A DNA stretch of 64,000 nt from a virus. Lineage: Duplodnaviria > Heunggongvirae > Uroviricota > Caudoviricetes. Location: IMG/VR virus record IMGVR_UViG_3300025467_000526, positions 1-64,000 of that record; one strand, written 5' to 3'. Positions 6,253-32,833 of the stretch are shown piece by piece (position 1 is the first letter of the stretch; each line of letters starts with the position of its first letter). The notes under the pieces are model-generated. The model saw only the letters and a program-made list of their open reading frames with translations, searched no databases and was not told the origin of the DNA. The position numbers were made by a program, and so were the translations under genes.

Positions 6253-6261
6253 GAAATATTT

Positions 6262-12528: not shown

Positions 12529-12568
12529 CTATTTATAGTGGGTGTTAACTGCCCGATAAATATTGCCT

Positions 12569-14567: not shown

Positions 14568-15370
14568 TAATAATTTTCCAAGTTGTCAATGCCTAACTTT
14601 TTACGAAACTCTTCCGTAAACTTACCGTCAATTCGTAAACCATAGCTTTGTCGCATAATACGATCACCGCCGTGCCAATCTTGATCATTCCACCATGCGG
14701 CACGACAATTGATATAATGTTTGTTTTTAGTTTCTGGATCCCATAGATAAAAAGGTCTTTCTAAATTAGGACGAATATGAATAAACTCGTTGCGATGTGG
14801 ACTATAACCTTTTGGTCCTTGTTCTCCGCTCAAATCTCTATGTTCCCAACTGATACCGTCGGCATCGCATACAAAAAATATTACACGGCCGATATGTTCA
14901 AAGATACCGTTGGTAATAGTTTGCTCTACCCATTTAACTACATTAGGGAAATACTTTGCTTCTTCTGTTAGTTTACGCGGTGCAGTCCTGTCATCCCAGG
15001 AACCTTCTTCCCACAAAAAATAGTAAGTGTAAGGATCGTATGCACCCATGGCAATTTTAAGATAACGAGTAAAGATGTTTCTTTGCTTGTATTTCTTAAA
15101 GTCTTTATAATATTCCATTCCTTTTAGTTTGATAGGATTATCATCTGGTAACGATAAAAATTCTTCCATAGCTTTGTAAATTGGTTTCCAATGCATGATA
15201 TAACTCATGTCTGCAATATCAAAGCCTGGTTTCATCCAAGTGCCTTCTTTAGCAAACTCCATTGCGTCGGCAAAGCCTTCGTGTATTTCTTGTTGTAGTG
15301 CGTCAAACCCTTGCATGTCTAAATGTGGCGACATATCAAAATAAGGAATATTATTAATGCCTTTAATCAT
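14567..15370 (-). CDS. hypothetical protein, paralog of 15367..16164; possible cupin/2OG-oxygenase fold
   Basis: Shares N-terminal GIN..P..DMS..LD, central YYFLWEEGSWDD and C-terminal blocks with the neighbouring gene. Carries HRD…H…RxS-like residues (WEHRD, DWHGGDRIMRQS). Confidence 0.4.
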   Translation of the reverse strand: MIKGINNIPYFDMSPHLDMQGFDALQQEIHEGFADAMEFAKEGTWMKPGFDIADMSYIMHWKPIYKAMEEFLSLPDDNPIKLKGMEYYKDFKKYKQRNIFTRYLKIAMGAYDPYTYYFLWEEGSWDDRTAPRKLTEEAKYFPNVVKWVEQTITNGIFEHIGRVIFFVCDADGISWEHRDLSGEQGPKGYSPHRNEFIHIRPNLERPFYLWDPETKNKHYINCRAAWWNDQDWHGGDRIMRQSYGLRIDGKFTEEFRKKLGIDNLENY

Positions 15371-16164
15371 AAATTTAATTCCTTTTTCATAGCATCTGTA
15401 AAATATCCGTCAACACGTAGTGACCAAGCGGGTGCAATATGTCTAACTGCCGAATGCCATTCTTTTGCATTAAACCAGCATGCCCATGAATTAGCAAAAT
15501 ACTTGTCTTTGTTATCAGCATCGAATACATAGAAAGGTCTACTAGTGTCAGAACGTAAATGTATAAAATGAGGTAATTGATCAATATCATCATGCACCTT
15601 ATCTAACGGCAACCGCAAGTCACTGTCTGGTGCTAGGTCATAATGTTCTACAGTTCTTCCATCATGCTCAACGTAAAATATACATACCCGGAATATACTA
15701 TCAAACATTGTTCCAATTAAAGAATTTGCCCATGCCATCACTGAAGGAAACTTTTCTGCAAGCTCGGGTAGTTTAGCATCGGGCATAGTTGTGCCGCCAA
15801 AGTTTTCATTTGTAGTTAAGTAAAAAACACGAAGTGGATCATACACTCCGTATTTTGATTTAAAAAATCTAATTAGTTTATTTCTAGAAGTTACGTTATC
15901 TAGATTATTGTGCCACTGCTTTGCTTTAGAGTCATCTGTAATATCTGGATCTTTCAAGAAATCCTTTAATCCGTCCGGAATAGTTTTCCAGTCTTGCGGA
16001 TTAGTTGAGTTAGGATGATTTTCAATATCAATCCATATACCTTCAAATGCATCTAACTTGGTTTCTGCAAGCCCAGCTATAATTTCAGGTTCAAGTTTTT
16101 GAAACGCTTCTCTATCTAAGAAACGACTCATGTCTACTATTGGCTGACCGTTAATCCCTCGCAT
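15367..16164 (-). CDS. hypothetical protein, paralog of 14567..15370
   Basis: Start trimmed to the internal Met (MRGINGQPIVDMSRFLD) that aligns with the paralog N-terminus (MIKGINNIPYFDMSPHLD). The ORF track extends to 16221. Confidence 0.4.
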   Translation of the reverse strand: MRGINGQPIVDMSRFLDREAFQKLEPEIIAGLAETKLDAFEGIWIDIENHPNSTNPQDWKTIPDGLKDFLKDPDITDDSKAKQWHNNLDNVTSRNKLIRFFKSKYGVYDPLRVFYLTTNENFGGTTMPDAKLPELAEKFPSVMAWANSLIGTMFDSIFRVCIFYVEHDGRTVEHYDLAPDSDLRLPLDKVHDDIDQLPHFIHLRSDTSRPFYVFDADNKDKYFANSWACWFNAKEWHSAVRHIAPAWSLRVDGYFTDAMKKELNL

Positions 16165-16846
16165 ATATTTGTTTTGCCTTTTTAATAAAATCTTCTGGAT
16201 ACATATTACTAAAACAATCAAATGTAAGTTGTTGTATTACGTTTAACGGATATTTTGTATTCCAATCTAAATTAATAGAATCTGTATATTTTTTTAACTG
16301 TTCTTGTCTTTGTAAACTAATGTGACTTTGTACACTTGCAATGGATAAATCGGGTTCATTGCTACTGTAAGTAAAAAAATAGTTGATGCTTTTTAGTTTG
16401 CCATCTACAATAAAATAACTGCTTGGGTGCATACTGTACTTGTACCAGCCTCTGTCTTTGTGTGCTTGGATAATGGCTAGCATTTGATCCTGCCAGTCTG
16501 GTAGTATTTCATTAAACGAACAATTACGGTCTAAACTTTGTTGCCAAAAATCAACACCACCAATTTCTAAATAAATTTTACGTTCTGGAACATTTACTTC
16601 TTTAATTGCTGGAACCATGTCTGGATTATGCCAAGCCATGTTGCTAATGAAGTGCAATTCTCGATTCCATTTTTCATCCATTAGTTCTTGGTCAATTACT
16701 TGATTCTTACCCTGGTGATATTCGGAATCATTATGATACCACATACAAAATGTTTTACTATCACTACTAATTAAACTAGTATAGATTAAGTTATTTCTAC
16801 AAGGTTCTTCACCTGGTACGCGATTGTAATAGTATTCAAACTGCAT
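16151..16846 (-). CDS. hypothetical protein
   Basis: 231-aa ORF, first gene of the minus-strand run. Confidence 0.45.
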   Translation of the reverse strand: MQFEYYYNRVPGEEPCRNNLIYTSLISSDSKTFCMWYHNDSEYHQGKNQVIDQELMDEKWNRELHFISNMAWHNPDMVPAIKEVNVPERKIYLEIGGVDFWQQSLDRNCSFNEILPDWQDQMLAIIQAHKDRGWYKYSMHPSSYFIVDGKLKSINYFFTYSSNEPDLSIASVQSHISLQRQEQLKKYTDSINLDWNTKYPLNVIQQLTFDCFSNMYPEDFIKKAKQIYARD

Positions 16847-16907
16847 AAAATCTCCCTATAGCTCTATTTATTTTCTGCCCTTAACTCTACAACATAAATA
16901 TTGTACT

Positions 16908-17984
16908 ATGAAAATTACAAAAATACCCGGCTTAGGAAGATTCGGAATCTTTATCGATGATGTAGACTTTACTACAATGTCAGATGACCAGTGGTTAGAA
17001 ATCGGACAACTGCATTTACAAAACTTAGTTACAATCATACGAGACTGTAACATGCCTTGGGAAACTCAACCAGACTGGTGTGAAAAGTTTGGTCCCAGAC
17101 GCAGTGGAGTACGCTACCATATGGAAAAGAAGTATGGTCAACAATGGAATTGGTTATTCAAAGAAGCACAAGCAAATAATCCTATTATTAGTGAATTGGA
17201 TCGAGAACGTATACAAGCTATTGCCAAAGTACAGTATCAAACTCCAGGCGGAAAAAGTTTCATGAAAGTGAGTGGAGCCAAGGATGAACACGGTAATGCA
17301 CTTGGGATGTTTGCAGAAGGCGAATTACTATGGCATAGTAACGAATCGGGTACGCTGACATTTACTCCGGGCGTTGCATTGTTGGGTGTGCAGAACATGA
17401 TAGGATCTGCTACAGGATTTATCACAACTACTGATTATTATGAAAATGTAAGCAATGCATTTCGTAGCGAATTAGATGAAATGATACTGTTACATAGATT
17501 TATCCCGGGTGCTATTAATCCAGGTCTACGTGCAGATCAAGATGAAATCATGCATGCCAATATGTGTCCAGAAGACGATACCGAAATACCAATGACCATT
17601 TTAAGTCCAGGTGGTATCAAAGGACTGCATTATAGTATTAATACTGCTTATAGTATTAAGGGCATGAGCAAAGAATCCAGCGATGAAATATTTGCTATGA
17701 TTAACAAAGAATTATTTGTAGACAAATACATCTATGATCACTGGTATCAAAGTGATCACGACTTGTGTTTGTTTGACAACAGTATTACATTACACAGAAG
17801 ATTAGGCGATATCAAAGAACGTGTGTGCCATCGTGTCCCACATGACTACACTAAATTACATAGCAACTTTTGGCAGCCTTATAGCCAACCAGATGTTGCT
17901 GATCAATTCGAAAAAGAAATTCTTTACTATGTTGATTTATGCAAGGTTAGAGGATACAGAATGCCTGACGGAAGTTTGTCTTGA
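16908..17984 (+). CDS. TauD/TfdA-like dioxygenase-fold protein
   Basis: C-terminal HWYQSDHDLCLFDNSITLHRR matches the pattern of the TauD C-terminal motif. An earlier LWHSNES lies where HxD would be. The metal ligands are not fully canonical. Confidence 0.45.
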   Translation: MKITKIPGLGRFGIFIDDVDFTTMSDDQWLEIGQLHLQNLVTIIRDCNMPWETQPDWCEKFGPRRSGVRYHMEKKYGQQWNWLFKEAQANNPIISELDRERIQAIAKVQYQTPGGKSFMKVSGAKDEHGNALGMFAEGELLWHSNESGTLTFTPGVALLGVQNMIGSATGFITTTDYYENVSNAFRSELDEMILLHRFIPGAINPGLRADQDEIMHANMCPEDDTEIPMTILSPGGIKGLHYSINTAYSIKGMSKESSDEIFAMINKELFVDKYIYDHWYQSDHDLCLFDNSITLHRRLGDIKERVCHRVPHDYTKLHSNFWQPYSQPDVADQFEKEILYYVDLCKVRGYRMPDGSLS

Positions 17985-18592
17985 ATCCGTATGCCGTTGA
18001 AAATACATACCACGTAATTTATCACGAAACATGTGATGAGTTCGAACGTGTACGCAGTATCTGTTTAGAAGAGAATAATTGGTTACAGAAAAATTATACT
18101 CAAGAAAAATTAGTTATAGAAGATCATAGTGGTTATGTTGTAGTATATCAGAAAGAAACTAACAAACCTATTATCATGGCAGGTGCATATAATGGCATGT
18201 TTCCTTCTAACGTAGCTCGATTAGCCAACAGATTATATTTGTTTCCAGAATTTCGTTGCGGTAGACACAACATGATAGAATCTTACAAACTTCATCATGA
18301 ACGTATAGTTAAGCCTTTAATGGCTATTAACGATTACAATCTGTATGTTATCACTATGCAAAATCGTACTCGTGGAAACAAGGGGTGGTGGAGTCGTTGG
18401 AAAAAAATGATGCAAGAATCCAGCAATAATATGTGGACTGAAGCAGATGGCTATTTGCAAACATGTCCATGGCTTGTTCAAAAGTGTTGTCAAAATTTTG
18501 TTTATACAGAATTAAAAAAAGGTACATTTAAAGAATGGAACCCAAAAATTATAACCGAGGCGGAATGGCAAGTATTGCCTGAAGGTACATGA
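17981..18592 (+). CDS. hypothetical protein (probable TTG start)
   Basis: 203-aa ORF. The first in-frame ATG is far downstream, so TTG 17981, overlapping the upstream stop, is the likely start. Confidence 0.4.
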   Translation: MNPYAVENTYHVIYHETCDEFERVRSICLEENNWLQKNYTQEKLVIEDHSGYVVVYQKETNKPIIMAGAYNGMFPSNVARLANRLYLFPEFRCGRHNMIESYKLHHERIVKPLMAINDYNLYVITMQNRTRGNKGWWSRWKKMMQESSNNMWTEADGYLQTCPWLVQKCCQNFVYTELKKGTFKEWNPKIITEAEWQVLPEGT

Positions 18593-19323
18593 CATTAAAC
18601 AAAAAGTTACGAACCTTACAATTTTTAAATCTTTTCTTATCTATCGTAGGATTGTGTTATTATGGGTTTGATTACTTGTTGTTGAGTTATCTAGTTTTTG
18701 TTTTGTTATGCCCTATTGGAATTAGTGCAGGGTTACATAGATACTTTACACACAAGTCTTATAAAACATCTAAGTTCTGGGAAAGAACTATGTTGCTGTT
18801 AAGTGTATATGCTACTGTAGGTAGCAGTATAGCTTGGGTCGGTGTTCACAGAGCACATCATACATTTACCGACAAACCCTACGACCCGCATAGTCCAGCT
18901 GATGGAGTATTCAAAGCATGGACTGGTATAGGGCATACTGAAACTAAGATCCCAGTTAGTTTTGTAAAAGATCTATTAAGAGATCCGTTACATAGATTTA
19001 TACACGATAATTATTTTAAAATTTTATTGATTCCAGTAATTGCATTATTTCTGTATAGTCCAATGCTCGGAGTTTTTTTATATGCTATACCTGCAACTCT
19101 GGCGCTACAAACAACTAGCATAGTTAATGTACTAGGACACACACAAGGATATCGCAGTTACAATACTGACGATTGCAGTAGCAATAGTTGGATTGCTAAC
19201 ATTCTTAGTTTAGGAGAAGGATGGCATAATAACCATCATCATTATCCCAGCAATTTTAGTTTAACAGAACGTTGGTGGGAATGGGATTTAATTGGCGAAT
19301 TTATAGAGGCAATTCGCCTATAA
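18589..19323 (+). CDS. membrane fatty-acid (acyl-lipid/acyl-CoA delta9-type) desaturase-like protein
   Basis: Three His boxes match the stearoyl-CoA/DesC-type desaturase pattern: HRYFTH, HRAHHTF…DPHSP, and GEGWHNNHHHYP. The N-terminus is hydrophobic. Confidence 0.6.
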   Translation: MTLNKKLRTLQFLNLFLSIVGLCYYGFDYLLLSYLVFVLLCPIGISAGLHRYFTHKSYKTSKFWERTMLLLSVYATVGSSIAWVGVHRAHHTFTDKPYDPHSPADGVFKAWTGIGHTETKIPVSFVKDLLRDPLHRFIHDNYFKILLIPVIALFLYSPMLGVFLYAIPATLALQTTSIVNVLGHTQGYRSYNTDDCSSNSWIANILSLGEGWHNNHHHYPSNFSLTERWWEWDLIGEFIEAIRL

Positions 19324-19897
19324 TCATATAGCGGGTATACATCTGTGTTTCTAACTCACCGGACCATATGACATCAAGTTTACTTTGTTCTTCAAAATGT
19401 TGTAAACTAGTAGAAGTTCTAATGTGTTCTGGTAACTCATAATTGTTGCCTTGCAACACAATCAAACTATCTTTTCTAAGACCCGACAACCATAGCTCGT
19501 AATCTTCTTGAGTGATATGTTCACAGCTAGTATTAATAACAACATCAGCCTCGCTAGGCACGTTTATCATATTAGCATGGATGAATTCAAACCTGCCCTG
19601 TATATGTTCAATCTTGTTCATCATCTCGGATATAGATTTACAGTTTATATCTAAATCTATATTGTTAATTTTTTCAACAGTCATTCCACTTTGAAATATC
19701 ATACTGGCTAGAGTACCTACCCACCCTGCGTATATGTCAATATTAACAGGCTGATCAATTTCTAATTTCAAATGTTCTATCAGCCATTCTTTACTTTTAA
19801 TTTGTCCGCGCCAAAACGCTTCTAAAGTTTGACTTGGATTGTCGCTATCTCTTATAGCACACATCCAATAATGTAAATGTTCTGTATCAATTAGCAT
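19301..19897 (-). CDS. hypothetical protein, possible SAM-dependent methyltransferase fold
   Basis: NIDIYAGWVGTLA is a weak glycine-rich motif-I-like segment, followed by an acidic DVVIN. The assignment is weak. Confidence 0.3.
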   Translation of the reverse strand: MLIDTEHLHYWMCAIRDSDNPSQTLEAFWRGQIKSKEWLIEHLKLEIDQPVNIDIYAGWVGTLASMIFQSGMTVEKINNIDLDINCKSISEMMNKIEHIQGRFEFIHANMINVPSEADVVINTSCEHITQEDYELWLSGLRKDSLIVLQGNNYELPEHIRTSTSLQHFEEQSKLDVIWSGELETQMYTRYMIIGELPL

Positions 19898-20903
19898 TAA
19901 ACTGTGTTCCTAACTTGTCGAACTTGCCGCATTGTTTGGCACATTCATAAACTGGGTCGTTAGCCCAGGTGTTTTCAATACGATTAAAATAACCCGAATT
20001 GAAAATGTCCTCTAAAGATTGTTCATGTAGATTAGGAAACTCTCCAATCTTGTCCATATAATCGATACGAGTATATTGTTTATGTAATTTTTCTTTAAAG
20101 TCCATCCAGCAACACGGACCGACATTACCAGACGCCGCAACATAAATTTGTTTGTATTTGACTGCCTTGCAAGTAATAACACAAGAACTTTTGTCTACCA
20201 CTTGATCCATAGGCATATCTTTTGCATACTTTAAAACTTCTGGAAGTATTTCTTCAGTTTTGGTACTTGGCAATAAATGATACAATGTCTTGCCTGAATC
20301 ATCTAATACTGGAAATTTAATATCAGTAAATCGAGTTGTGTGTTTTACTTGGAATAAATTAAATCCTAACTGGGCAGACAGACGGCGACATGCTTCTACT
20401 TGATGCTCATTGTGTTTGAACACCAGCATGTGCCAATCTGCATGGCCACCTGCTTGTATGAATGCAGTTGCATTTTTTATAATTCTGTTCCAATCTGTGT
20501 CTATTCTATAAAGAGAATGAGTGTCTTCTAATCCGTCAATACCAAATACTACTCTAATATCTAATTTAGCTAACTCTGCCCACCATTGAGTACTTCTAGC
20601 ACTGCCGTTTGTATGCATACTCAAACGTATATTAGGATTAGTTGTTCTGAGGTACTGAAAGATTGCCAAACAATCTTCTGCAATGATAGGATCACCCAAG
20701 TTGCCGCACATGAATAAACTATCTAGTTGACAGATAAAATCTTTACTGAACCATTTTTTAAATGTATCTAAATCTATTTCCACTAATGTCATGAGCGGAT
20801 TCAATGTGCCGCCGTTGATACGCCTTGGGCACATAGGGCAACGTGCTTGACATTTAGTAGTTACTTCTAAGTGTATATCTCGTATGTCTGTTAGTTTATA
20901 CAT
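19887..20903 (-). CDS. radical SAM enzyme, paralog family C (SPASM/twitch-like)
   Basis: CQARCPMC, GNLGDP, and C-terminal C…CCWMDF…C…CAKQC. Confidence 0.65.
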   Translation of the reverse strand: MYKLTDIRDIHLEVTTKCQARCPMCPRRINGGTLNPLMTLVEIDLDTFKKWFSKDFICQLDSLFMCGNLGDPIIAEDCLAIFQYLRTTNPNIRLSMHTNGSARSTQWWAELAKLDIRVVFGIDGLEDTHSLYRIDTDWNRIIKNATAFIQAGGHADWHMLVFKHNEHQVEACRRLSAQLGFNLFQVKHTTRFTDIKFPVLDDSGKTLYHLLPSTKTEEILPEVLKYAKDMPMDQVVDKSSCVITCKAVKYKQIYVAASGNVGPCCWMDFKEKLHKQYTRIDYMDKIGEFPNLHEQSLEDIFNSGYFNRIENTWANDPVYECAKQCGKFDKLGTQFNAN

Positions 20904-21856
20904 TTTGGTATTTTGCTGTCTGCACTACTTACGCAACGAGGCGTTGAACATATACGAGGTGCGGAAAACAAAGTAAATTTTTCTATCGTACCTAATGGCT
21001 CATCCCGACAACTATAAGCTCTTTTAACTTCAGTACCTTTTATTATAACACTTTGATAGCCTGCATTGCAAGTCCAATTGGTAAAACTATTGAACCCTAA
21101 TGCGTTGAATCGTTCTGCTTGATCTATAAAATAATTCTGATTACCGTCGGTTAACCTGATTTGATATCCTTCCTGCTGTTCAAAGTCATTTTGCATTATA
21201 GTAAGCATATCAGGAGTATAGCCTTCTACAATAGCAGTAGCAGTATCATTGCTTTGTGGTTTGAGAGTTACGTTGATTCCACGAGCACGAAGGCGTTCAC
21301 AGCGAGCCAATGTTTCATAAAACACACTGGGAACCATTACTTGATTAACTGTTACATGTACCTGTTCATACATTAACTGTAAACATTTGTCTCCAAACTC
21401 TTGCTCTCTAGCATGTTCTGCGTGAAAACTGGCAGTGATACTTCTTCGCTGTAGGCAGTCTGTAACATCGCTCCAATGCTTCCACCATTTTGATCCTGGA
21501 CTTAAATTAGTTGTCATATGGATACTTTGGTACGGGCTTTCGGTTTCGTCCAAATGTTTGATCAAATTGAGCAAATCTCGATAAGCAGTCGGCTCACCTC
21601 CGCTGAAGCTCCAGTGGAATTCTTCAAATCCATTTATCCTAGCCTGGCGTTTGATTTCATCTATAACGGATTTATACACTTCTAAGGTTTGGTGATCCGG
21701 TTGATCGCTTCTAGCGTAGGGCCAACAGTAGGAACATTTATAGTTACAAAATCTACCCAGGATCCAACTAATGTTAAATAATGGACGATCCAACATAGAT
21801 TGTTGTCCAAAACGTTGTATTTTTGCGAAAGGTATAGTTGAGAATTGCATTGACAT
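20891..21856 (-). CDS. radical SAM enzyme, paralog family A
   Basis: CNYKCSYC, FSGGEPT, and C-terminal NWTCNAG…C…C.TPRC. Confidence 0.7.
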   Translation of the reverse strand: MSMQFSTIPFAKIQRFGQQSMLDRPLFNISWILGRFCNYKCSYCWPYARSDQPDHQTLEVYKSVIDEIKRQARINGFEEFHWSFSGGEPTAYRDLLNLIKHLDETESPYQSIHMTTNLSPGSKWWKHWSDVTDCLQRRSITASFHAEHAREQEFGDKCLQLMYEQVHVTVNQVMVPSVFYETLARCERLRARGINVTLKPQSNDTATAIVEGYTPDMLTIMQNDFEQQEGYQIRLTDGNQNYFIDQAERFNALGFNSFTNWTCNAGYQSVIIKGTEVKRAYSCRDEPLGTIEKFTLFSAPRICSTPRCVSSADSKIPKCIN

Positions 21857-21879
21857 TATTTACACATGGTGCTATAATT
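21851..21879 (+). promoter_or_regulatory. consensus sigma70-type promoter for the tRNA-like gene
   Basis: TTGACA (21851-21856), exact 17-nt spacer, TATAAT (21874-21879). The predicted transcription start at about 21886 coincides with the first base of the tRNA-like acceptor strand. Confidence 0.6.
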
Positions 21880-21885
21880 AACAGG

Positions 21886-21998
21886 CAGACGTGAGTGTAA
21901 CTGGTAAACCTCCTCCTAGTAAGCTGACCCCCAGCTGAACGGAGGGCAAGGGTCTAGCTCTTAGAGCGACTTTGGAAGTTCGAATCTTCCCGTCTGTA
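21886..21998 (+). tRNA. tRNA-like RNA gene (113 nt, atypically long; identity undetermined)
   Basis: The 3' end is canonical: T-arm GGAAG-TTCGAAT-CTTCC, then acceptor strand CGTCTGT, discriminator A and encoded CCA. The only 5' partner is GCAGACG at 21886-21892 (7 bp including one G-U). A long variable-arm-like hairpin GCTC-TTA-GAGC is present. The D-arm folds poorly. A CCTCC/GGAGG helix encloses an extra AGCTG-ACCCC-CAGCT hairpin. This could be a type-II tRNA with an insertion or intron, or a tRNA-like element. Confidence 0.45.
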
Positions 21999-22028
21999 CC
22001 ATTGTTAACTAATAGAAAGAAGTTTAAA

Positions 22029-22352
22029 ATGAAAAAGATTGTAATTGCAACATTGATGTTTATTAGCACTAGTGTATTTGCGTACAACGATGATCCTGCA
22101 GAATTGTTTTCTACAGCTTCCAATGTCACCACTGAATCCAAAATCAAATGGGTATCGGTAAATGATGTTACGGCTCAATGCAATAGAGAACGTAGTGCCA
22201 AAGGACAAGCAGGGTTCAATGCTAAATTAAAAGCCTGTAGTTTTTGGGACGACAATCACACATCCTGTACTATCATTACAGGTAAAAATGTTAACATGCA
22301 TACCATTGGACATGAAATGCGTCATTGTTTTCAAGGCGATTGGCATCAGTGA
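22029..22352 (+). CDS. small secreted protein with a C-terminal HExxH zinc-metalloprotease-like motif
   Basis: Start moved to ATG 22029, giving MKKIVIATLMFISTSVFA-YN, a signal peptide with an AXA-type site. HEMRHC lies 11 aa before the stop. The track's longer ORF (21972) would run through the tRNA-like gene. Confidence 0.5.
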   Translation: MKKIVIATLMFISTSVFAYNDDPAELFSTASNVTTESKIKWVSVNDVTAQCNRERSAKGQAGFNAKLKACSFWDDNHTSCTIITGKNVNMHTIGHEMRHCFQGDWHQ

Positions 22353-22750
22353 GAAATTTAGAAGAAGAAATTTGGCGCGATGATGAGATCCTAAACAAGA
22401 TCCGTACTCGCGACGACTATGCTCAAAATGTCTATGCGGCATTTTGTAATATGCGTTGGTGCCCTAGAGAACTAGTTCCAGCATTAAGACAAGATGACAA
22501 AAAAGACTTGTGGCATTGTAGTTGGAGAAGTGCTGGCGGCTTAGTTGCAGATTGGCAAGGTAAGGGCGGAGACTATATGGACTGGTACTGTTCCGGTATT
22601 AGAGGCGGTTTGAGTATCGACGGTAAAGAAGATGCCGAGTATTTTGAACGTACTAAGTATGTGTCCGAAGGTGTTATCACTGAAGAAGTTGAAAAAGACT
22701 TTAACCGTTTGGGCTGGTTTCCGGTTCCTTGGGACGATGACGAAGATTGA
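22325..22750 (+). CDS. hypothetical Cys/Trp-rich acidic protein
   Basis: 141-aa ORF that overlaps the previous gene by 28 nt in another frame. The start is uncertain (ATG 22325 or GTG 22349). Confidence 0.4.
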   Translation: MFSRRLASVRNLEEEIWRDDEILNKIRTRDDYAQNVYAAFCNMRWCPRELVPALRQDDKKDLWHCSWRSAGGLVADWQGKGGDYMDWYCSGIRGGLSIDGKEDAEYFERTKYVSEGVITEEVEKDFNRLGWFPVPWDDDED

Positions 22751-22764
22751 GAGTAAATAATACT

Positions 22765-22935
22765 ATGACACATTGGACTGTAACTTTAGAAGAAACAGAT
22801 GATGGAAGTGGGGATTTAATTTTGCCATTTCCTGAAGATTTTTTAAAGGCCGTTGGATGGCAAGAAGGAGATACACTTGAGTGGAAAGATAATGGAGACG
22901 GATCCTGGATCCTTGAAAAAGTAAAAGATGAGTAA
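22765..22935 (+). CDS. small hypothetical protein
   Basis: ATG 22765 (MTHWTVTLEETDDG…) is preferred over the upstream TTG 22747 used by the ORF track. Confidence 0.4.
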   Translation: MTHWTVTLEETDDGSGDLILPFPEDFLKAVGWQEGDTLEWKDNGDGSWILEKVKDE

Positions 22936-23149
22936 AAAAGAAGATGTAATTGAATTAACTGGACTAGTCAAGGAAGTGTTGCCTGGTAACATGTTCAGAG
23001 TAGAAGTAAACAATATGCCCGAATTATTACTTTGCTATATGGGCGGCAAACTCAAACAACATAAAATTAGAATCATAGAAGGCGACAATGTTAAATTGGA
23101 AGTTAGCCCATATGATTTAACCAAAGGTCGTGTAACTTACCGACTTTGA
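22928..23149 (+). CDS. infA: translation initiation factor IF-1 homolog (S1-like OB fold)
   Basis: The 73-aa protein MSKKEDVIELTGLVKEVLPGNMFRVEVNNMPELLLCYMGGKLKQHKIRIIEGDNVKLEVSPYDLTKGRVTYRL aligns along its full length with bacterial IF-1 (…[20 protein letters not shown]…[32 protein letters not shown]…). Confidence 0.8.
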   Translation: MSKKEDVIELTGLVKEVLPGNMFRVEVNNMPELLLCYMGGKLKQHKIRIIEGDNVKLEVSPYDLTKGRVTYRL

Positions 23150-23174
23150 CATGTGCTTTATTGTATGCTATAAT
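23146..23174 (+). promoter_or_regulatory. consensus sigma70-type (early-like) promoter
   Basis: TTGACA, 17 nt, TATAAT, all exact. It lies inside the long form of the downstream ORF, which argues for a CDS start at 23205. Confidence 0.65.
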
Positions 23175-23204
23175 ATTCACATATTAACTCGTACAGTGAG
23201 CGAC

Positions 23205-23885
23205 ATGGAACATAAAACTTTTCCTACACAGCAAGTATTAGAATTGGCCTGTGCCGCACAAAGAATTAACGGTGAGTACCTTAAAGTACCTGAGGCTGTT
23301 TATGCCAATGATGGAGTTTATATGTACACCAAACAGGCTAACAAAACTCTAATGCTTTATACACTGGATACCAGAATGGTTATCCCTGATACTAAAGTGC
23401 TCAAAATTGAATCTGAAGATATTACTCGAGCAGAAGAAATTCGTAGTTACTACAAAAGATTAATGTTTGCCGCAATCGACGGCGAGAACGAATTCCTTAC
23501 AAAAATTAATTCCTTACTGAGCGGTGATACAGTTAAAGAAAATGAATTTGGTTGGATTGCTTGTCTGCCTAGTGTACAGGCCAAAGATAAGATGCACAAT
23601 GAAGTTAAAAAGATTTCACGTCAAGTTGACGAAGGATTTTTAGGAAGTCCTGGAGATCGTTTGGCAGATTTAGATTGTGAAATTCTTGAGGTAATTAAAT
23701 CAAAGAACTTTGACGGATGGAACATCTGTGCTATAATAAACAATAAAATGGCAAGTTGGATGAGTCAAACAGAACTGAAACGTGGACCATGCGTCATTGT
23801 CAAAGCAAAAGTAAAAGATAACAGCAAACACTGGAAACATGGAAACGATGAGACCAGACTTAACTATGTAAAGGCGGCACAATAA
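23205..23885 (+). CDS. hypothetical protein
   Basis: Start set at ATG 23205 (MEHKTFPTQQ…), downstream of the consensus promoter. The ORF track starts at 23151. Confidence 0.5.
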   Translation: MEHKTFPTQQVLELACAAQRINGEYLKVPEAVYANDGVYMYTKQANKTLMLYTLDTRMVIPDTKVLKIESEDITRAEEIRSYYKRLMFAAIDGENEFLTKINSLLSGDTVKENEFGWIACLPSVQAKDKMHNEVKKISRQVDEGFLGSPGDRLADLDCEILEVIKSKNFDGWNICAIINNKMASWMSQTELKRGPCVIVKAKVKDNSKHWKHGNDETRLNYVKAAQ

Positions 23886-24058
23886 TGGCGGGTACAGCGA
23901 AATCGGTTTACTTAACAATTACCAAAAAAAGTAGTTATAAGACAGAATTTACCAAAGTATTCTTTGATGCTAAAGCATACAATGAATATGTAAAGACAGA
24001 TGAGTTCAAAGCCAAATGGCCTAAAGAAGAGTTTACTATTACCAAAGAGGTATACTAA
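23885..24058 (+). CDS. small hypothetical protein (57 aa, not in ORF track)
   Basis: MAGTAKSVYLTITKKSSYKTEFTKVFFDAKAYNEYVKTDEFKAKWPKEEFTITKEVY. TAATG overlaps occur at both ends (23885 and 24058), which is typical of translational coupling. Confidence 0.4.
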   Translation: MAGTAKSVYLTITKKSSYKTEFTKVFFDAKAYNEYVKTDEFKAKWPKEEFTITKEVY

Positions 24059-24312
24059 TGGGTAAGGCAAAACATAAACCCTATCAATGGATTGATGGTG
24101 AAACTGCTGATCGCATTACTAGTCTTAACTTAAAGGACTATCGTGCTTATCTTAAAAAAGAACTAAAACAGTGGAAGAAGAATCCTAAAACAGAATCTAA
24201 CCCAGATGGCTATTGGTTGCATCCAGATGACATAGTAACTAATATGCGTACCATTGAAGCATTAGATTTAATTATCAGTCACTTTCCAGAAACATCGGAT
24301 GAAATAAAATGA
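24058..24312 (+). CDS. hypothetical protein
   Basis: 84-aa ORF in a coupled gene chain. Confidence 0.45.
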   Translation: MGKAKHKPYQWIDGETADRITSLNLKDYRAYLKKELKQWKKNPKTESNPDGYWLHPDDIVTNMRTIEALDLIISHFPETSDEIK

Positions 24313-24536
24313 GCAGATACACTACAGTTTATAAAGAAGTCGAGATTGATGTTGACTTAGACGATTTCGATGATGAGGATATTTTAGAAGAAATGGAAAA
24401 ACGTGGACTTGCAGTCGGAGCCAGTGGCGATGGTCGCGAACTGCTCACTGCCATTTGGCTCAAACGTAGACAAGGACAAGACTACCAAACAGAGTTGGAT
24501 CAACTAATTTACAACGGATTGGGGAAAATTATATGA
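24309..24536 (+). CDS. hypothetical acidic protein
   Basis: 75-aa ORF with an ATGA overlap. Confidence 0.45.
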   Translation: MSRYTTVYKEVEIDVDLDDFDDEDILEEMEKRGLAVGASGDGRELLTAIWLKRRQGQDYQTELDQLIYNGLGKII

Positions 24537-25138
24537 AACGAGAACTAGACGAATACCTATGTAAGGTATATCCAAAGATGATGGTTAATCGTGACAAGTC
24601 AATGCAGGAGACTTGTATGTGCTGGGGCTTTGAATGTGGAGATGGTTGGTTCCAGATTCTCAATCAGCTTATGGGTAATATTCAGCATCACATTGATTGG
24701 AAGATTAGACAACGTGAAGTCGCTATCAAATTTAATAAGATGGCTGAACAACTCAAAGCCGGTGACTCTACATTATTCGACGAGGATATGAAAGACATGC
24801 TAAATCGAGATTACGTAGAAAAACGTAAGCAAGAACTTATCAAAGATCCCCCGCGTGAAATTCCCGCAGAAGTTCCGCAAGTAACTCTGGATCAAGTTAA
24901 AGAAAAGTTTGGCACCCTACGCTTCTACTACACAGGCGGTGATGAATACATTCGCGGACTTGTTGACATGGCAGAATCAATGTCAGGCGTAACTTGCGAA
25001 GAATGTGGCAAGCCCGGAACACAGACCCCAGGTGGTTGGATCAAGACAGTGTGTGTAGAACATGGCGGTCAGGATTTTGATACTCCGGAAGAAGAATTGG
25101 AAGAAAATAAATTACTCAAAGAAGGATTCGAGCAATGA
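24533..25138 (+). CDS. hypothetical protein with Cys clusters (possible zinc-binding)
   Basis: Contains CMCWGFECGDGW and CEECGKPG…CVEHG. Confidence 0.45.
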   Translation: MKRELDEYLCKVYPKMMVNRDKSMQETCMCWGFECGDGWFQILNQLMGNIQHHIDWKIRQREVAIKFNKMAEQLKAGDSTLFDEDMKDMLNRDYVEKRKQELIKDPPREIPAEVPQVTLDQVKEKFGTLRFYYTGGDEYIRGLVDMAESMSGVTCEECGKPGTQTPGGWIKTVCVEHGGQDFDTPEEELEENKLLKEGFEQ

Positions 25139-25734
25139 TTACTATGAAAGAATGGATGGAGTTGGTAGGCTATAAAATCACTGAAGGTGGTGATTATGGT
25201 TGGGCTTGTTATGGTCCTAACTCATATCAACTATCTAGTTGGAATGGTATCCACGGCAAAGGTGGATACAGTTTTAACATTGTATTCAGTACTAAGACTC
25301 AAAAGGTCTATGAAGTTTCAGTATGCGACTATACCAATGATCGTGCTTATCGTATGATTGCCGAGGACAAGCAGAAAAAATATGCCAAAGAAGCTAAACG
25401 CAATTTTATTAATTTAAATGAAGCATGGGACAATATCGAGTATGTTGACTTAGAAGTGGATGACGATTTCATTCAAAAATGCCTAGCTATCAAAGCAGGA
25501 GAAGAATACAGCACAGATATAAGCATTCCCCTGGACTTGCCAGACGACTTGCTGATGTTTGCATTCAAGGCCGCACATACTGAGAATATGACGTTCAATG
25601 ACTGGATGAATAAGATGCTTAAAGACTTTATTGACAAAGTTGAAAAAGGCGAGTATAATAAAGAGGATGTTAAAAAGTTTAAAAATGAACACCCTGAATA
25701 TCATTTTGGGGAAGAAATAAACGAGGAAGAATAA
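25135..25734 (+). CDS. hypothetical protein
   Basis: 199-aa ORF with an ATGA overlap. Confidence 0.45.
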   Translation: MITMKEWMELVGYKITEGGDYGWACYGPNSYQLSSWNGIHGKGGYSFNIVFSTKTQKVYEVSVCDYTNDRAYRMIAEDKQKKYAKEAKRNFINLNEAWDNIEYVDLEVDDDFIQKCLAIKAGEEYSTDISIPLDLPDDLLMFAFKAAHTENMTFNDWMNKMLKDFIDKVEKGEYNKEDVKKFKNEHPEYHFGEEINEEE

Positions 25735-25995
25735 ATGAGCGAAACTGTTTTATGTAAAGATTGTAAACATGCAAAATGGAATCCATTGAAATTACATACA
25801 TGGTACTGCCATCGAGAATTAGTTCCAGAAAGTACTAAAGAAAATTTTGTTACAGGACATAAAGTTACTCCGGCATACTATCCTAGTTGCAGTATGGAAA
25901 GACTTAGTTCTAGTCCTTGTGGCAAGTCTGGAAAGTTTTGGTCTCCTAAAAATAAAAAGGATTTGTTTAAATTAATTAAACATGTAAGCGTATGA
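25735..25995 (+). CDS. hypothetical Cys-rich protein
   Basis: Contains CKDCKH…CH…C…C spacing. Confidence 0.4.
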   Translation: MSETVLCKDCKHAKWNPLKLHTWYCHRELVPESTKENFVTGHKVTPAYYPSCSMERLSSSPCGKSGKFWSPKNKKDLFKLIKHVSV

Positions 25996-26852
25996 GAATC
26001 AAACTAGTCAGTGATCTCCATTTAGAGTTCAGTGACATCAACATTCAAAATGATCAGGACTATGATGTACTGATCCTTGGTGGCGATATTATGATCGCAC
26101 AGGATCTCCACGACCATCCTGAGCTTAGTAATACTGCCGATCAACGGGCTATTGCCAATGGCACCGGCTTGGGTCGTAGACAAGAACGTGCTCAACGGTT
26201 CCGTGACTTTCTAAAGCGTTGCAGTTTTCAGTTTCCACATGTAATCTATATTATGGGTAACCATGAATTCTACAATGGAAAGTTCTATGCAGGTATTGAC
26301 TACATGCGTGAAGAGTGCGCCAAGTTTCCCAACATCTATATGCTGGAACAGGACACTAAAATTATCGATGATGTAGTGTTTGTTGGTGGTACGCTGTGGA
26401 CCAACATGAACCGGCGTGATCCATTAACCATGCATGCTATTGAAGGTATGATGAACGATTTTCGTATCATTCGTAACGACTACAGAAGCTATGCTCCTAT
26501 GAGTGCGTTGGATGTCGCTCACAGACACGATAAGACTCTTGCCTACATCAAGCTGATTGTCGAAGAACATAAGGACAAAAAGTGTGTTGTGGTCGGGCAT
26601 CATAGTCCAAGTTTCCAAAGTGTACACGAACAGTATGCTCATGAGACACTCATGAACGGTGGCTATCATAGTGATCTAAGTGAGTTCATTTTGGATCACC
26701 CACAGGTCGTGTTGTGGACACATGGACATACACATTGTCCTTTCGATTATAAGATTGGAGAGACTAGAATTGTTTGTAATCCACGTGGTTACGAAAACGA
26801 TGGTTACAGCGAAGACACAGGTTGGAACCCTAATATTTTATTGGAGATTTAA
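25992..26852 (+). CDS. calcineurin-like metallophosphoesterase
   Basis: Motifs SDLHLE (DxH), GGDI (GDxx), GNHEF (GNHE), GHHSP and GHTH (GHxH) are present. Confidence 0.65.
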   Translation: MRIKLVSDLHLEFSDINIQNDQDYDVLILGGDIMIAQDLHDHPELSNTADQRAIANGTGLGRRQERAQRFRDFLKRCSFQFPHVIYIMGNHEFYNGKFYAGIDYMREECAKFPNIYMLEQDTKIIDDVVFVGGTLWTNMNRRDPLTMHAIEGMMNDFRIIRNDYRSYAPMSALDVAHRHDKTLAYIKLIVEEHKDKKCVVVGHHSPSFQSVHEQYAHETLMNGGYHSDLSEFILDHPQVVLWTHGHTHCPFDYKIGETRIVCNPRGYENDGYSEDTGWNPNILLEI

Positions 26853-26853
26853 T

Positions 26854-27018
26854 ATGGCAGAAGAAATTGTAACAACTACTGTAGCTGAAATGCTACGAGT
26901 AACTGGTAATAATACCAACGACTTTATGCAACAAGTTGCAGAGCATATTGAAAAATTAGAAGATGCAGTAAAACAATTACAGGCTCGTGTGCAAGAGCTA
27001 GAGGAAGGTGTTAAATGA
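26854..27018 (+). CDS. small coiled-coil protein (54 aa)
   Basis: ATG 26854 gives MAEEIVTTTVAEML…LQARVQELEEGVK. The track's 26680 start lies inside the previous gene. Confidence 0.35.
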   Translation: MAEEIVTTTVAEMLRVTGNNTNDFMQQVAEHIEKLEDAVKQLQARVQELEEGVK

Positions 27019-27437
27019 TTGATTGTCTAATAATGGGCGATAGTATTGCTGTAGGTACTGCCCAGGTACGCCCCGAGTGTGTATCATATGCTACAGGTGG
27101 ACTTAATAGTTATCAATGGCTTAATAAGAATGTTGGCAAGAGTCCGTTTGAAGCCAAAACTGTAATTATTAGTCTTGGATCAAATGATCACAAATATATT
27201 AAGACTGAAGAGGAACTACGTACTATTCGTAGACTGACTAAAGCTGATAGAGTGTTTTGGATCATGCCTGCTGGTAATAATCCTAAAAGTGAAGTAAGTA
27301 TCCAAGCAATTATGCAGACTGTTAGTATTGTTGCCAAGGAGTTTGGAGATACTGTAATTACCAATAATCAATTACAGCCAGACCATATCCACCCTAATGC
27401 ACTTGGTTATAAAAGAATTGCAGAGCAAACAAAATGA
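27015..27437 (+). CDS. SGNH/GDSL-family hydrolase-like protein (short)
   Basis: GDSIAVG (block I), GSNDH (GxND) and DHIHP (DxxH) are present. At 140 aa it is shorter than typical SGNH hydrolases. Confidence 0.5.
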   Translation: MIDCLIMGDSIAVGTAQVRPECVSYATGGLNSYQWLNKNVGKSPFEAKTVIISLGSNDHKYIKTEEELRTIRRLTKADRVFWIMPAGNNPKSEVSIQAIMQTVSIVAKEFGDTVITNNQLQPDHIHPNALGYKRIAEQTK

Positions 27438-27853
27438 AAATTGGACTTAGTTATAGTCGATGCGTTAGAGACATTGTCGATGGAGTAGTAGACATTGACG
27501 ATGTTCTCATCATTATTAGCCGTACAGATTTTGATCCTAGAAATGATGTACAATGGGAGAGTATTTGGCAAGGATATCACGAGCCCTATGGTTTGAGTAA
27601 TCCTGAATGGGTAGCTTATCAAGCTGAGGACGAAGACCGATTTCGAAGTGTTAGCATCGAATTACTAGAAACTGGTAAACTACACCAGCCACGTCAATTT
27701 GGAGCACACCCTAGTCGCCGTCCAGAAATTTGGCTAGAAGCTGTATTACCCAATAGTGAATTGGAAAAGAATCCTACAGCCAAAAAGGCTTTTGAAAAGT
27801 TCAAAACTATAGCTGGACTTTCGAGCGTCGAATTAGATGACAAATACCGCTAA
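27434..27853 (+). CDS. hypothetical protein
   Basis: 139-aa ORF with an ATGA overlap. Confidence 0.45.
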   Translation: MKIGLSYSRCVRDIVDGVVDIDDVLIIISRTDFDPRNDVQWESIWQGYHEPYGLSNPEWVAYQAEDEDRFRSVSIELLETGKLHQPRQFGAHPSRRPEIWLEAVLPNSELEKNPTAKKAFEKFKTIAGLSSVELDDKYR

Positions 27854-27865
27854 CTCGTTTATAAT
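27837..27865 (+). promoter_or_regulatory. near-consensus sigma70-type promoter
   Basis: ATGACA, 17 nt, TATAAT, lying ahead of the lipoprotein gene cluster. Confidence 0.5.
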
Positions 27866-27895
27866 ACTCATATAGTAACTAAACGAAAGTTCAAA

Positions 27896-28153
27896 ATGAA
27901 GTATGCATTATTGCTGTCAGCGTTATTGCTTACGGCTTGTGTAGACGAAGATAAGTCCCTAACTTACCAACAGTTGCGGGACTATCCTGTTGATTGCAGT
28001 TTGAAAGATCAACAGTTGCAACAACTTAAAACTATCCAAACAAAATTAAACTTTGATCAAGATCCTGACAAACTCAGCGAACCCGATCGTGTCTATAATA
28101 GTCGCTTAAAAGCCACAATTTGGTGGTATGCTTACAGTTGCGAGCAATCATGA
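27896..28153 (+). CDS. small lipoprotein
   Basis: MKYALLLSALLLTAC carries a lipobox (LTAC). Confidence 0.5.
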   Translation: MKYALLLSALLLTACVDEDKSLTYQQLRDYPVDCSLKDQQLQQLKTIQTKLNFDQDPDKLSEPDRVYNSRLKATIWWYAYSCEQS

Positions 28154-28497
28154 AAAAAATACTATTCTTAATGCTTTTGGTGAGTCAGCTGGCAGTTGCC
28201 AACGAATGTAAAACTACCACAGTTACTATTGAGAAAGACGGCAAAGTCAGTAACGAAACTGCTACTATTTGTAAAGAAACTGGAGGAGTCGACCTACGAG
28301 TTAAAATCGGTGATACCATTTTGGAAAGCGAAGTCAACGAATCTGCTGTCAAAAAGTATTTTAAGTACAACGGACATAAATGTCGATTGTTTGAAGAATC
28401 TGGAGTAGTTGATAAAAAAATTAAAGACTATTTTGGTGTTATTTGTCAGGTAGATCCAAAAGATGAAAACAACTGGATCGTAGTTGACAAGTGGTAA
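28150..28497 (+). CDS. small secreted protein
   Basis: Start at ATG 28150 gives MKKILFLMLLVSQLAVA-NE, a signal peptide. The ORF track starts at 28120. Confidence 0.5.
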   Translation: MKKILFLMLLVSQLAVANECKTTTVTIEKDGKVSNETATICKETGGVDLRVKIGDTILESEVNESAVKKYFKYNGHKCRLFEESGVVDKKIKDYFGVICQVDPKDENNWIVVDKW

Positions 28498-28512
28498 TTG
28501 TTATAGTATAAT
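28484..28512 (+). promoter_or_regulatory. consensus sigma70-type promoter
   Basis: TTGACA (inside the 3' end of the upstream CDS), 17 nt, TATAAT. Confidence 0.6.
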
Positions 28513-28547
28513 ATAGACATGTTCAACAAACATAGAAAGGCAATAGT

Positions 28548-28679
28548 ATGAAAGGCGTTATTTTAGGCATTGTTTTAACTTTGGCAGTTTTGTATCCTGC
28601 GGTTACTAAGAATTTGTTTGGTACTGCTGTAGATACTACTAATGCTATTGTTATAACTACATTGGAGAAAACAAAATGA
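28548..28679 (+). CDS. small membrane protein (43 aa, not in ORF track)
   Basis: MKGVILGIVLTLAVLYPAVTKNLFG… has a GAAAGG RBS upstream and an ATGA overlap with the next gene. Confidence 0.35.
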   Translation: MKGVILGIVLTLAVLYPAVTKNLFGTAVDTTNAIVITTLEKTK

Positions 28680-28932: not shown

Positions 28933-28933
28933 T

Positions 28934-29485: not shown

Positions 29486-29493
29486 GGAAAAAT

Positions 29494-30426: not shown

Positions 30427-30427
30427 T

Positions 30428-32802: not shown

Positions 32803-32833
32803 AGTGTGTATATAATTGGGTTTCATAGTATAG

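Follow-up and report, generated by a model that had tools for sequence, protein, structure and literature searches.

In a 64,000-nt stretch of DNA from a virus of the Caudoviricetes (positions 1 to 64,000 of the IMG/VR virus record IMGVR_UViG_3300025467_000526, hereafter the window), we describe a 117-nt element that is very probably the gene for a non-decoding mimic of transfer RNA (tRNA). The element resembles a leucine tRNA in which a closed hairpin occupies the place of the anticodon stem-loop. Comparison with its homologues reveals that the RNA structure is under selection and that the anticodon loop has been lost. A preliminary description, made from the letters of the window alone, had proposed a tRNA-like gene behind a perfect consensus promoter and had suggested either a type-II tRNA with an inserted segment or intron, or a tRNA-like regulatory or priming RNA. 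The parts of the element and the features around it are listed in Table 1.

Table 1. Coordinates of the RNA element, its promoter and its neighbours in the window, and of type-B relatives in their own loci.
Feature	Coordinates	Strand	Remarks
-35 hexamer TTGACA	21850..21855	+	TTGAC at the same offset in 80/82 distinct upstream flanks
Extended -10 element, TGc TATAAT	21870..21878	+	hexamer 21873-21878 ends 6 nt before RNA nucleotide 1
tRNA-like RNA	21885..22001	+	117 nt including encoded CCA; predicted primary transcript from nucleotide 1
Acceptor stem, 5' strand GCAGACG	21885..21891	+	7 bp with CGTCTGT 21991-21997
D region UGAGUGUAACUGGUAAACC	21892..21910	+	U8, A14, A15, G18, G19, U20, A20a invariant; stem weak, non-canonical
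Anticodon-arm analogue	21911..21946	+	stem UCCUCC/GGAGGG; no anticodon loop
Long variable arm	21951..21971	+	4 + 4 bp, 2-nt bulge, UUA loop
T arm GGAAG-UUCGAAU-CUUCC	21974..21990	+	textbook form
Acceptor 3' strand CGUCUGU, discriminator A (21998) and CCA (21999-22001)	21991..22001	+	
A/U-rich 3' trailer and ribosome-binding region of next gene	22002..22028	+	no terminator
107-aa protein, signal-peptide-like N-terminus, C-terminal HExxH	22029..22352	+	first downstream gene
IF-1 homologue (Pfam eIF-1a, 66.9 bits)	22928-23149	+	in the transcription unit of the RNA
Divergent radical-SAM gene	20891..21856	-	start codon abuts or overlaps the -35 hexamer; context only
Type-B RNA, locus L345	1349-1447		
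Type-B RNA, locus L316	1819-1918		
Type-B RNA, locus L310	3362-3473		
Type-B RNA, locus L327	1015-1127		
Further type-B RNAs, L354-L378			

A tRNA body without an anticodon loop

The ends of the RNA pair to form the acceptor stem, which in the window includes a G1.U72 wobble pair. The 113-nt complementary span noted previously is confirmed (21885-21997) and is followed by a discriminator A and by an encoded CCA, which had gone unmentioned. Inspection of the sequence also bears out the textbook T arm and acceptor 3' strand, as well as the weakness of the D arm: the D loop is canonical (AACUGGUA), and the stem comprises 2-3 pairs whatever the register. The CCTCC/GGAGG helix reported to enclose an AGCTG-ACCCC-CAGCT hairpin is likewise present. 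It reads (U)CCUCC/GGAGG(G), with 21911-21916 paired to 21941-21946, and is separated by an internal loop (UAGUA 21917-21921 / GAAC 21937-21940) from the inner hairpin AGCUG-ACCCC-CAGCU at 21922-21936; a UUU linker is also found among the internal regions. The internal loop fits the consensus AGUA/GAA, which we take to be that of the bulged-G (sarcin-ricin or loop E) motif. RNAfold recovers the four-way shape with a single-sequence energy modestly below that of shuffled sequences (z = -1.7), the G+C content is 53% for the RNA vs about 38% for the window, and the RNA scores 129.7 bits under the covariance model R1.

Support for this fold comes from 81 distinct homologous sequences of 94-119 nt, which form the type-A comparison set. 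In the alignment of all 81 (A2), which was fitted to the model structure and thereby favours the pairing figures, 97.7% of cells are paired and 24 of the 33 pairs show compensatory changes, a result reached by none of 500 shuffles. An independent MAFFT alignment of 32 distinct sequences (A1) is 97.2% paired with both sides changing in 20 of 34 pairs, again with 0/500 shuffles reaching this, and slid controls gave 39-50% pairing for the former alignment and 42-51% for the latter. Across the 81 sequences compensatory pairs occur in the acceptor stem (99.1% of cells paired, 5/7 pairs), the T stem (100%, three pairs), the variable arm (98.3%, 7/8 pairs) and the basal 6 bp of the internal arm (99.4%, four pairs). 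The T loop is TTCGAAT in 73 sequences. The D stem is without covariation and contains only G-C and U-A pairs, save for a single covarying pair at columns 14/24 (U-A 19, G-U 41, C-G 1, G-G 20). The recurrence of the fold with covariation in 81 distinct sequences supports the original proposal of a tRNA-like RNA.

None of these sequences contains a 5-bp anticodon stem with a 7-nt U33 loop and an anticodon. The distal part of the arm is free in length (14-36 nt) and ends in a tetraloop in 50/81 sequences (UUCG 24, CUUG 6, GNRA 9, and others), the remaining variants including extended helices; the single 7-nt loop, AGCCAGG, has no U33 and is not anticodon-like. The anticodon loop is missing even from homologues that do not have the extra hairpin, such as L076, with UCCUCCC-UUCG-GGGAGGG, and L004, which is one of six IMG/VR contigs that share an exact 28-mer reaching from the T arm through the acceptor strand to CCA, and which carries a 94-nt version with the internal arm UCCGG-CAUG-CCGGG. 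These hairpin-less forms speak against the suggestion of a type-II tRNA interrupted by an insertion or intron. From its sequences the family looks like a constant tRNA chassis with a swappable hairpin.

Two further observations concern the arm itself. The motif G(U/C)AAC(A/G)AAC recurs at its tip in L071, L110, L138, L113 and L161 of type A and in L354 of the divergent type B described below; this motif and the UAGUA/GAAC loop may be protein-binding modules. The arm of the window RNA also contains ACCUCCU, identical to the 3' tail of 16S rRNA. We dropped an anti-Shine-Dalgarno role because the GGAGG partner is not conserved in the short variants and the segment is base-paired.

Standard detectors largely pass over the RNA. 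At default settings ARAGORN finds no tRNA or transfer-messenger RNA (tmRNA) in the whole 64 kb window, and its tmRNA, intron and mitochondrial modes return nothing at default stringency. With a lowered threshold it proposes a tRNA-Thr(agt) with a 21-nt intron, and with a strongly relaxed threshold a 221-nt tmRNA that runs through the promoter with its tag unidentified; we judged both calls artefactual. Rfam 15 gives no match at gathering level for the window RNA, group I and other introns included, or for the family RNA at eight other loci. The Rfam tRNA model does align end to end, exactly over 21885-21998, matching the acceptor, D loop and T arm and leaving the anticodon-arm region unaligned, but scores 24 bits (E = 0.006 in a 261-nt search) against a threshold of 29 bits. 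The ordinary tRNAs of locus L096 reach 50-61 bits in the same search. E-value-level matches to CRISPR-DR50 and snoZ175 were put down to chance.

It is hardly credible, given these data, that the RNA is a genuine decoding tRNA, either of type II with a removed intron or insertion, or with an unusual anticodon loop. Apart from the tRNA-Thr(agt) call at lowered threshold, this idea can draw on some short variants that ARAGORN labels by default as tRNA-Pro(ggg/tgg) or tRNA-Arg(tcg) (L150 5928-6023, L142 7818-7913, L154 8519-8618, L202 2444-2542, and the type-B RNAs L345 1349-1447 and L316 1819-1918). However, the proposed anticodons vary among homologues and require perfect tetraloop helices to be opened, and their positions fall later than the 33-35 of ordinary tRNAs in the same loci. 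Together with the distal arm, of which no variant has a 7-nt U33 loop, the lack of an Rfam tRNA or group I intron match at threshold and the empty default intron mode, the comparative data exclude an intron-containing tRNA. The labels on the variants imply that family members are probably mis-annotated as tRNAs in public phage annotations.

The body of the RNA is of the leucine type. U8, A14, A15, G18, G19, U20, A20a, U48, U54, U55, C56, A58 and A73 are invariant in 81/81 sequences, and the RNA ends in ACCA in 80/81. These nucleotides include the complete set of identity determinants of the Escherichia coli leucyl-tRNA synthetase (LeuRS; PMC9976931): the A15-U48, G18G19, A20a, U8:A14, A73 and long variable arm of tRNA-Leu are all present in the 81 sequences. 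The E. coli enzyme ignores the anticodon and charges tRNA-Leu variants without anticodon and variable arms (PMC9976931). In L004 and L198 the D loop, GGAAUUGGUAGAC, is that of a bacterial tRNA-Leu(GAG), and the D loop of the window RNA is similar to those of bacterial and T4 tRNA-Leu. The best ordinary tRNAs under R1 are the T4 tRNA-Leu (33.4 bits) and the L096 tRNA-Leu(UAA) (31.1 bits), although tRNA-Leu does not come first everywhere: in L198 it is outscored by two tRNA-Ser and an odd tRNA-Ile. There is no leucine anticodon (NAG or NAA), the anticodon loop being absent.

In its acceptor, A73-CCA end, T arm, D loop of the form AAYUGGUA(K)A, long variable arm and LeuRS identity set, the family is like a class-II tRNA-Leu. 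It differs from one in that none of the 81 variants has an anticodon loop, and also in its weak D stem, an extra nucleotide after G9, a longer variable arm (8 bp plus bulge) and a sub-threshold Rfam tRNA score. The type-II ancestry suggested earlier is supported. A tRNA-Leu of a phage or of a host is the inferred ancestor, and leucylation of the RNA is possible.

Odd tRNAs of 94-101 nt that combine a UAU (Ile) anticodon loop with a long, class-II-like variable arm occur in L198 (12423-12516, minus strand) and L327 (323-423, plus strand); ARAGORN labels one of them "tRNA-???".

Promoter, transcript and a divergent subfamily

The promoter of the window RNA matches the sigma-70 consensus at 12/12 positions with a 17-nt spacer. 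The TTGACA-17-TATAAT of the preliminary description is thus present, with the start of its -35 hexamer corrected from 21851 to 21850. Among 82 distinct upstream flanks the -10 hexamer lies at exactly -12 to -7 from RNA nucleotide 1 (TATAAT 51, TATACT 23, TACAAT 4), and the 17-nt spacer is kept in 80. This constant geometry strongly supports the predicted start on nucleotide 1, where the earlier description had also placed it. With the offset fixed, the mature 5' end of the RNA is predicted to be the transcription start itself, carrying a triphosphate and no leader for RNase P.

At the other end of the RNA there is no terminator-like site in the window, which implies co-transcription with the downstream genes. 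Of 64 distinct trailers, 61 have A or T at five or more of the six positions that follow CCA, and in the inspected loci the next start codon follows 14-45 nt past the RNA, whichever gene comes next. The window contains eight consensus promoters, all on the plus strand between 21.8 and 41.4 kb (21850-41386), vs 1.3 expected by chance; five are perfect TTGACA-17-TATAAT promoters (21850, 23146, 25631, 28484 and 37995). That of the RNA is the leftmost of the eight. From its promoters this region looks like an early region read by the host sigma-70 polymerase.

The promoter spacer, AGTATTTAC (window 21848-21880 region), is conserved only where the divergent radical-SAM gene is the neighbour. Its reverse complement, GTAAATACT, resembles the T4-type late promoter TATAAATA; a late promoter on that strand would give a nearly leaderless late radical-SAM mRNA.

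A second subfamily, type B, comprises divergent R1 matches of 41-65 bits upstream of DUF2828, and its signature is found in 26 contigs of up to 383 kb. Type-B RNAs lie inside tRNA arrays, with tRNA-Arg on one side and, in three of the four loci first examined, tRNA-Ser(GCU) on the other, and are served by a separate TTGAC-17-TATAAT promoter that stops 6 nt short of nucleotide 1. Their D arm is a proper one, GAGC-AAAUAGGCAAA-GCUC, which resembles the D arm of the L096 tRNA-Leu(CAA). Common to both types are the CUCC...GGG arm start, the absence of an anticodon loop, the long variable arm and A73. Encoded CCA is absent from one type-B subclade, so its 3' end would need tRNA-like maturation. Two divergent lineages, each in its own context, keep the predicted start at nucleotide 1, the Leu-like body and the lack of an anticodon.

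The tRNA-Ser(GCU) genes beside type B (L345 1454-1545; L310 3480-3574) have A73 as discriminator, where the usual bacterial nucleotide is G73. Position 73 distinguishes serine from leucine identity in E. coli (PMC9976931).

The position of the RNA within its transcript suggests a rival explanation, in which it is a cis-acting 5'-terminal module that caps primary transcripts: early mRNAs in type A and tRNA-array transcripts in type B. Such a module would shield the transcript from 5'-end-dependent decay, or punctuate it for host 3'-processing enzymes and thereby define the downstream RNA. The start predicted at nucleotide 1 in 80/82 flanks and in the independent type B, the lack of a terminator, the close spacing of the next gene irrespective of its identity, and the place of the RNA behind the leftmost promoter of the consensus-promoter region all fit this idea. 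Against it, a protective hairpin needs no A73, CCA, G18G19/T-loop elbow, U48 or covarying 8-bp variable arm. The downstream partner varies (signal-peptide protein, gene 2, kinase, a small open reading frame (ORF) in L087-type loci, or a tRNA), and the type-B subclade without encoded CCA must mature like a tRNA. We consider a cis-acting module improbable.

A decaying tRNA-Leu pseudogene that came to lie behind a promoter by chance could account for the degenerate D stem, the missing anticodon loop and the sub-threshold tRNA score. It would not be expected to show compensatory changes in every other helix over 81 variants, invariant tertiary-interaction nucleotides, A73 and CCA, a conserved promoter offset, or two divergent subfamilies in at least 120 and 26 contigs. 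The comparative data exclude this explanation, the least credible of those we weighed.

Distribution and neighbouring genes

A D-region signature (GTGAGNGNAA..GGTANACCTC) matches at least 120 viral stretches. Every newly fetched signature locus matches R1, with 70-137 bits for full-length RNAs and a few clipped by the contig end. For the divergent radical-SAM neighbour more than 588 relatives were found among viruses, and the RNA is present in 72 of the 80 loci fetched through it; six of the 80 have upstream sequence yet no RNA. Outside viruses, the D-region pattern was sought in one genome per species for 185,579 bacterial and archaeal species, and no bona fide match was found. The 70 pattern matches are due to chance: R1 finds only ordinary tRNAs at these loci, and two Omnitrophota matches were rejected on inspection, having no T arm and no acceptor pairing. 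The RNA family is restricted to phages.

Searches of 50,697 cultured-phage records with blastn, using the locus, the RNA alone and a type-B RNA, gave no match, nor did a tblastn search of cultured phages with a conserved neighbouring protein. The contigs that bear the element reach 265-345 kb, and T4-like cyanophages have proteins with 42-46% identity to a virion protein of the window, which together indicate that the carriers are uncultured, T4-related jumbo phages. Full-text literature searches returned no description of the RNA family; a large structured-RNA screen of IMG/VR speaks of tRNA-like candidates only generically (PMC10690425). With no Rfam family, no counterpart in cultured phages and no description found in the literature, the initial remark that such an RNA would be unusual for a phage holds.

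Downstream of the RNA, the signal-peptide-like HExxH protein follows directly in 72/90 loci, a protein of 135-197 aa with no assigned function is found in 76/90, and the IF-1 homologue lies about 1 kb away in 66/90. We treat the 107-aa gene as presumably co-transcribed context only and claim no functional linkage. Searches of the conserved downstream genes against Pfam, PHROGs and PDB sequences returned nothing relevant to tRNA, the sole PDB match being a weak one to a carboxypeptidase (E = 0.004). Further downstream the window contains a single ORF of 4167 aa (46034-58537, plus strand), followed by virion structural genes.

Upstream lies an island of about 20 kb (window 2249-21856, both strands) with at least eight radical-SAM ORFs, four of them with SPASM domains, two Asp/Asn beta-hydroxylase-like proteins, two TauD dioxygenases (2-oxoglutarate (2OG) oxygenases) and a fatty-acid desaturase. 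A ninth radical-SAM ORF is found at window 36595-37971. Window 1-99 is the C-terminal end of a metallophosphoesterase, and since relatives lack the island between metallophosphoesterase and RNA, it looks like inserted, hypervariable cargo. The divergent radical-SAM gene is a frequent but not an obligatory neighbour, and we rejected a functional link between it and the RNA.

This island is relevant to the idea that the RNA is an orthogonal carrier, which LeuRS would leucylate, which the ribosome would exclude, and which would give its leucine to a transferase acting on DNA, protein, peptide or envelope. The family has lost the anticodon loop yet conserves the LeuRS identity set and the CCA end (PMC9976931), and there is a precedent outside translation in Mu Mom, which moves glycine from Gly-tRNA to DNA (PMC13219725). 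The radical-SAM/SPASM, 2OG oxygenase and desaturase genes adjoin the RNA in the window. However, the island is missing from many RNA-bearing loci and looks inserted, and no GNAT/Fem-type, cyclodipeptide-synthase-type or other known enzyme that uses aminoacyl-tRNA is found among the neighbouring genes examined. We consider a carrier role quite unlikely.

In island-less relatives the RNA has upstream of it some of the following: DUF2828/DUF7788 (Ro60-vWA-like), a DSP phosphatase, a metallophosphoesterase, an AAA_33 kinase, an HD_4 protein, a T4-Rnl1-type RNA ligase and tRNA arrays. The DUF2828 gene occurs in 426 stretches and is 87-100% identical among the 80 loci kept. The RNA lies within 6 kb of it in only 16 of these 80 loci, and on shared contigs the two are usually 17-30 kb apart. 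A Ro/Y-RNA-type pairing with DUF2828 is not supported, given how widespread the gene is and how far from the RNA it usually lies.

The IF-1 homologue in the transcription unit of the RNA might suggest a mimic directed at the ribosome or at translation factors, through tmRNA-like A-site entry, sequestration of RelA, EF-Tu or the E site, or partnership with IF-1. The degenerate D arm of the family, which resembles the tRNA-like domain of tmRNA, points the same way. The IF-1 linkage, however, amounts to the synteny of one clade, and in L087-type and type-B contexts the 3.2 kb downstream contain no IF-1 gene. Neither default ARAGORN nor Rfam calls a tmRNA, no SmpB was seen, and there is no G3.U70: position 3:70 is A-U or G-C in 78/81 sequences and G-U in 3/81. 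The tRNA-like domain of tmRNA has an acceptor, T arm, CCA and degenerate D arm, no anticodon, and a synthetase that is blind to the anticodon (PMC3985003). As a tRNA mimic with these parts the family is like tmRNA, but at about 100 nt against about 360 nt it has no mRNA-like domain, credible tag frame or G3.U70 identity.

An origin or primer RNA, the other alternative in this group, would fit the minimum of the cumulative GC skew near 22 kb. This minimum is no separate evidence for an origin, because it coincides with the switch in gene orientation. Nothing was found in support of the priming RNA that the preliminary description had considered, and no reverse transcriptase is present among the neighbouring genes examined. 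We regard a mimic directed at the ribosome or these factors, or an origin or primer RNA, as very unlikely.

Known analogues and the proposed function

The closest known analogue is RNAC of phage T4, together with RNAD. RNAC (species 1 RNA, rnaC) and RNAD are small RNAs from the tRNA region of T4, annotated as stable, whose function is still unknown (PMC3014915, PMC9697503). The ends of T4 rnaC (NC_000866 70908-71046, L273; fold z = -4.6) form a 7-position acceptor-like stem, and a canonical T arm (CCGGG-UUCGAAU-CCCGG) adjoins this stem along with two other hairpins and no anticodon arm. This fold makes RNAC a tRNA-like RNA. RNAC and the window RNA are both small RNAs of T4-related phages with an acceptor-like stem, a T arm and extra hairpins. 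RNAC is reported to be late (PMC9697503), whereas the window RNA is presumably early. In addition, RNAC is 139 nt long, has U.U acceptor mismatches, no encoded CCA and no Leu-type D loop, and lies at the end of a tRNA cluster and not directly behind a promoter that starts at nucleotide 1. No homology was detected with R1, under which the 3' 95 nt of rnaC score 15.9 bits, less than any well-scoring T4 tRNA.

Other known RNAs share parts of this architecture, and viral tRNA-like structures, the tmRNA domain, YrlA and tRNA scaffolds each fail at least one defining feature of the family. Ponchon and Dardel (2007) reportedly swapped the anticodon stem-loop of a tRNA scaffold for an arbitrary hairpin and obtained an RNA that is stable and processed in bacteria. 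The family shows the same swap on a constant chassis; it differs in being natural, in its many "empty" minimal tetraloop stems and in transcription without a leader. The leaderless tRNAs of Nanoarchaeum are said to start on position 1 with a 5'-triphosphate and to need no RNase P processing (Randau et al., 2008). Those tRNAs decode, in an organism without RNase P, whereas here a bacterial-type promoter precedes a non-decoding mimic. YrlA, a Y-RNA-like non-coding RNA, contains a tRNA-like module, has its gene among those for RNA repair and forms the Ro-binding stem with its ends. In some relatives our element likewise stands beside DUF2828/DUF7788, an Rnl1-type ligase, an AAA_33 kinase and phosphatases, as in the YrlA, Ro (Rsr) and RtcB systems, but the topology is reversed, the ends of the family RNA forming an acceptor stem with CCA, and there is no Rfam match. 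A Ro/TROVE platform with a tRNA-like partner has been mentioned (PMC7824862).

Taken together, we tentatively favour a non-decoding mimic derived from a class-II tRNA-Leu that acts in trans as a decoy or competitor and is perhaps leucylated, a reading to which we give a little less than an even chance. The host sigma-70 polymerase would start on nucleotide 1, leaving a 5'-triphosphate that is already base-paired and making an RNase P step unneeded, and the RNA would be the first product of a rightward, presumably early, region of phage transcription. A cut in the A/U-rich trailer would free the RNA, which would then be trimmed to the encoded CCA as host tRNAs are. The molecule keeps its acceptor/T minihelix intact, together with the elbow of D loop and T loop, the long variable arm, A73 and CCA. 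With a closed hairpin in place of the anticodon stem-loop, it can read no codon and offers no loop for anticodon nucleases to cut. If abundant, such an uncleavable tRNA-shaped ligand could compete in trans for host proteins that bind the tRNA body, among them tRNA-directed defence enzymes and possibly LeuRS, and the RNA may itself be leucylated. Early and high expression, tRNA-like 3' maturation and recognition by tRNA-binding proteins are all inferred.

Within this scheme the decoy function is preferred because the loop that nucleases cut is replaced by nuclease-resistant caps, with body, elbow, variable arm and 3' end kept; because the element adjoins tRNA arrays and RNA-repair-type genes in these genomes; and because hosts commonly direct defences at tRNA, with tRNases as a frequent weapon against phages, to which phages commonly respond with tRNAs of their own (PMC11555353, PMC13434031). 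Taken by itself, the decoy role is nonetheless doubtful.

Several points weigh against the trans-acting decoy. If anticodon nucleases were the target, a decoy should have kept the loop that they recognise; without it, the RNA could lure only proteins that bind through the tRNA body, elbow, variable arm or 3' end. Recognition by LeuRS could suffer from the weak D stem and from the additional nucleotide after G9, and the invariant arm start (U.G, C-G, C-G), which LeuRS identity does not explain, points to another partner. The Pfam, PHROGs and PDB sequence searches of the conserved neighbouring genes revealed no partner that binds tRNA or acts as a transferase. The RNA also stands always at the extreme 5' end of a terminator-less transcript, which fits a role in cis equally well.

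A broader possibility, also on the unlikely side, is that the RNA is an orthogonal chassis, which the host would leucylate and which would be barred from decoding, so as either to feed a modification pathway or to serve as an uncleavable anti-immunity decoy. If this were true, the swappable hairpin would be a natural counterpart of the laboratory tRNA scaffold.

The family is abundant, with at least 120 type-A and 26 type-B contigs and some genomes of 265-383 kb, and tRNA finders and Rfam miss or mislabel it. It may shed light on the fifty-year-old question of what RNAC and RNAD do in T4. It could also be of use for expressing RNAs, as a tRNA scaffold that is leaderless and naturally optimised. 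The tRNAs of phages are usually explained by codon usage or, recently, by the replacement of tRNAs that host defences destroy. A conserved, strongly promoted tRNA body that has lost its anticodon but retains all charging and shape determinants fits neither explanation and suggests that phages put the tRNA fold to a use outside translation.

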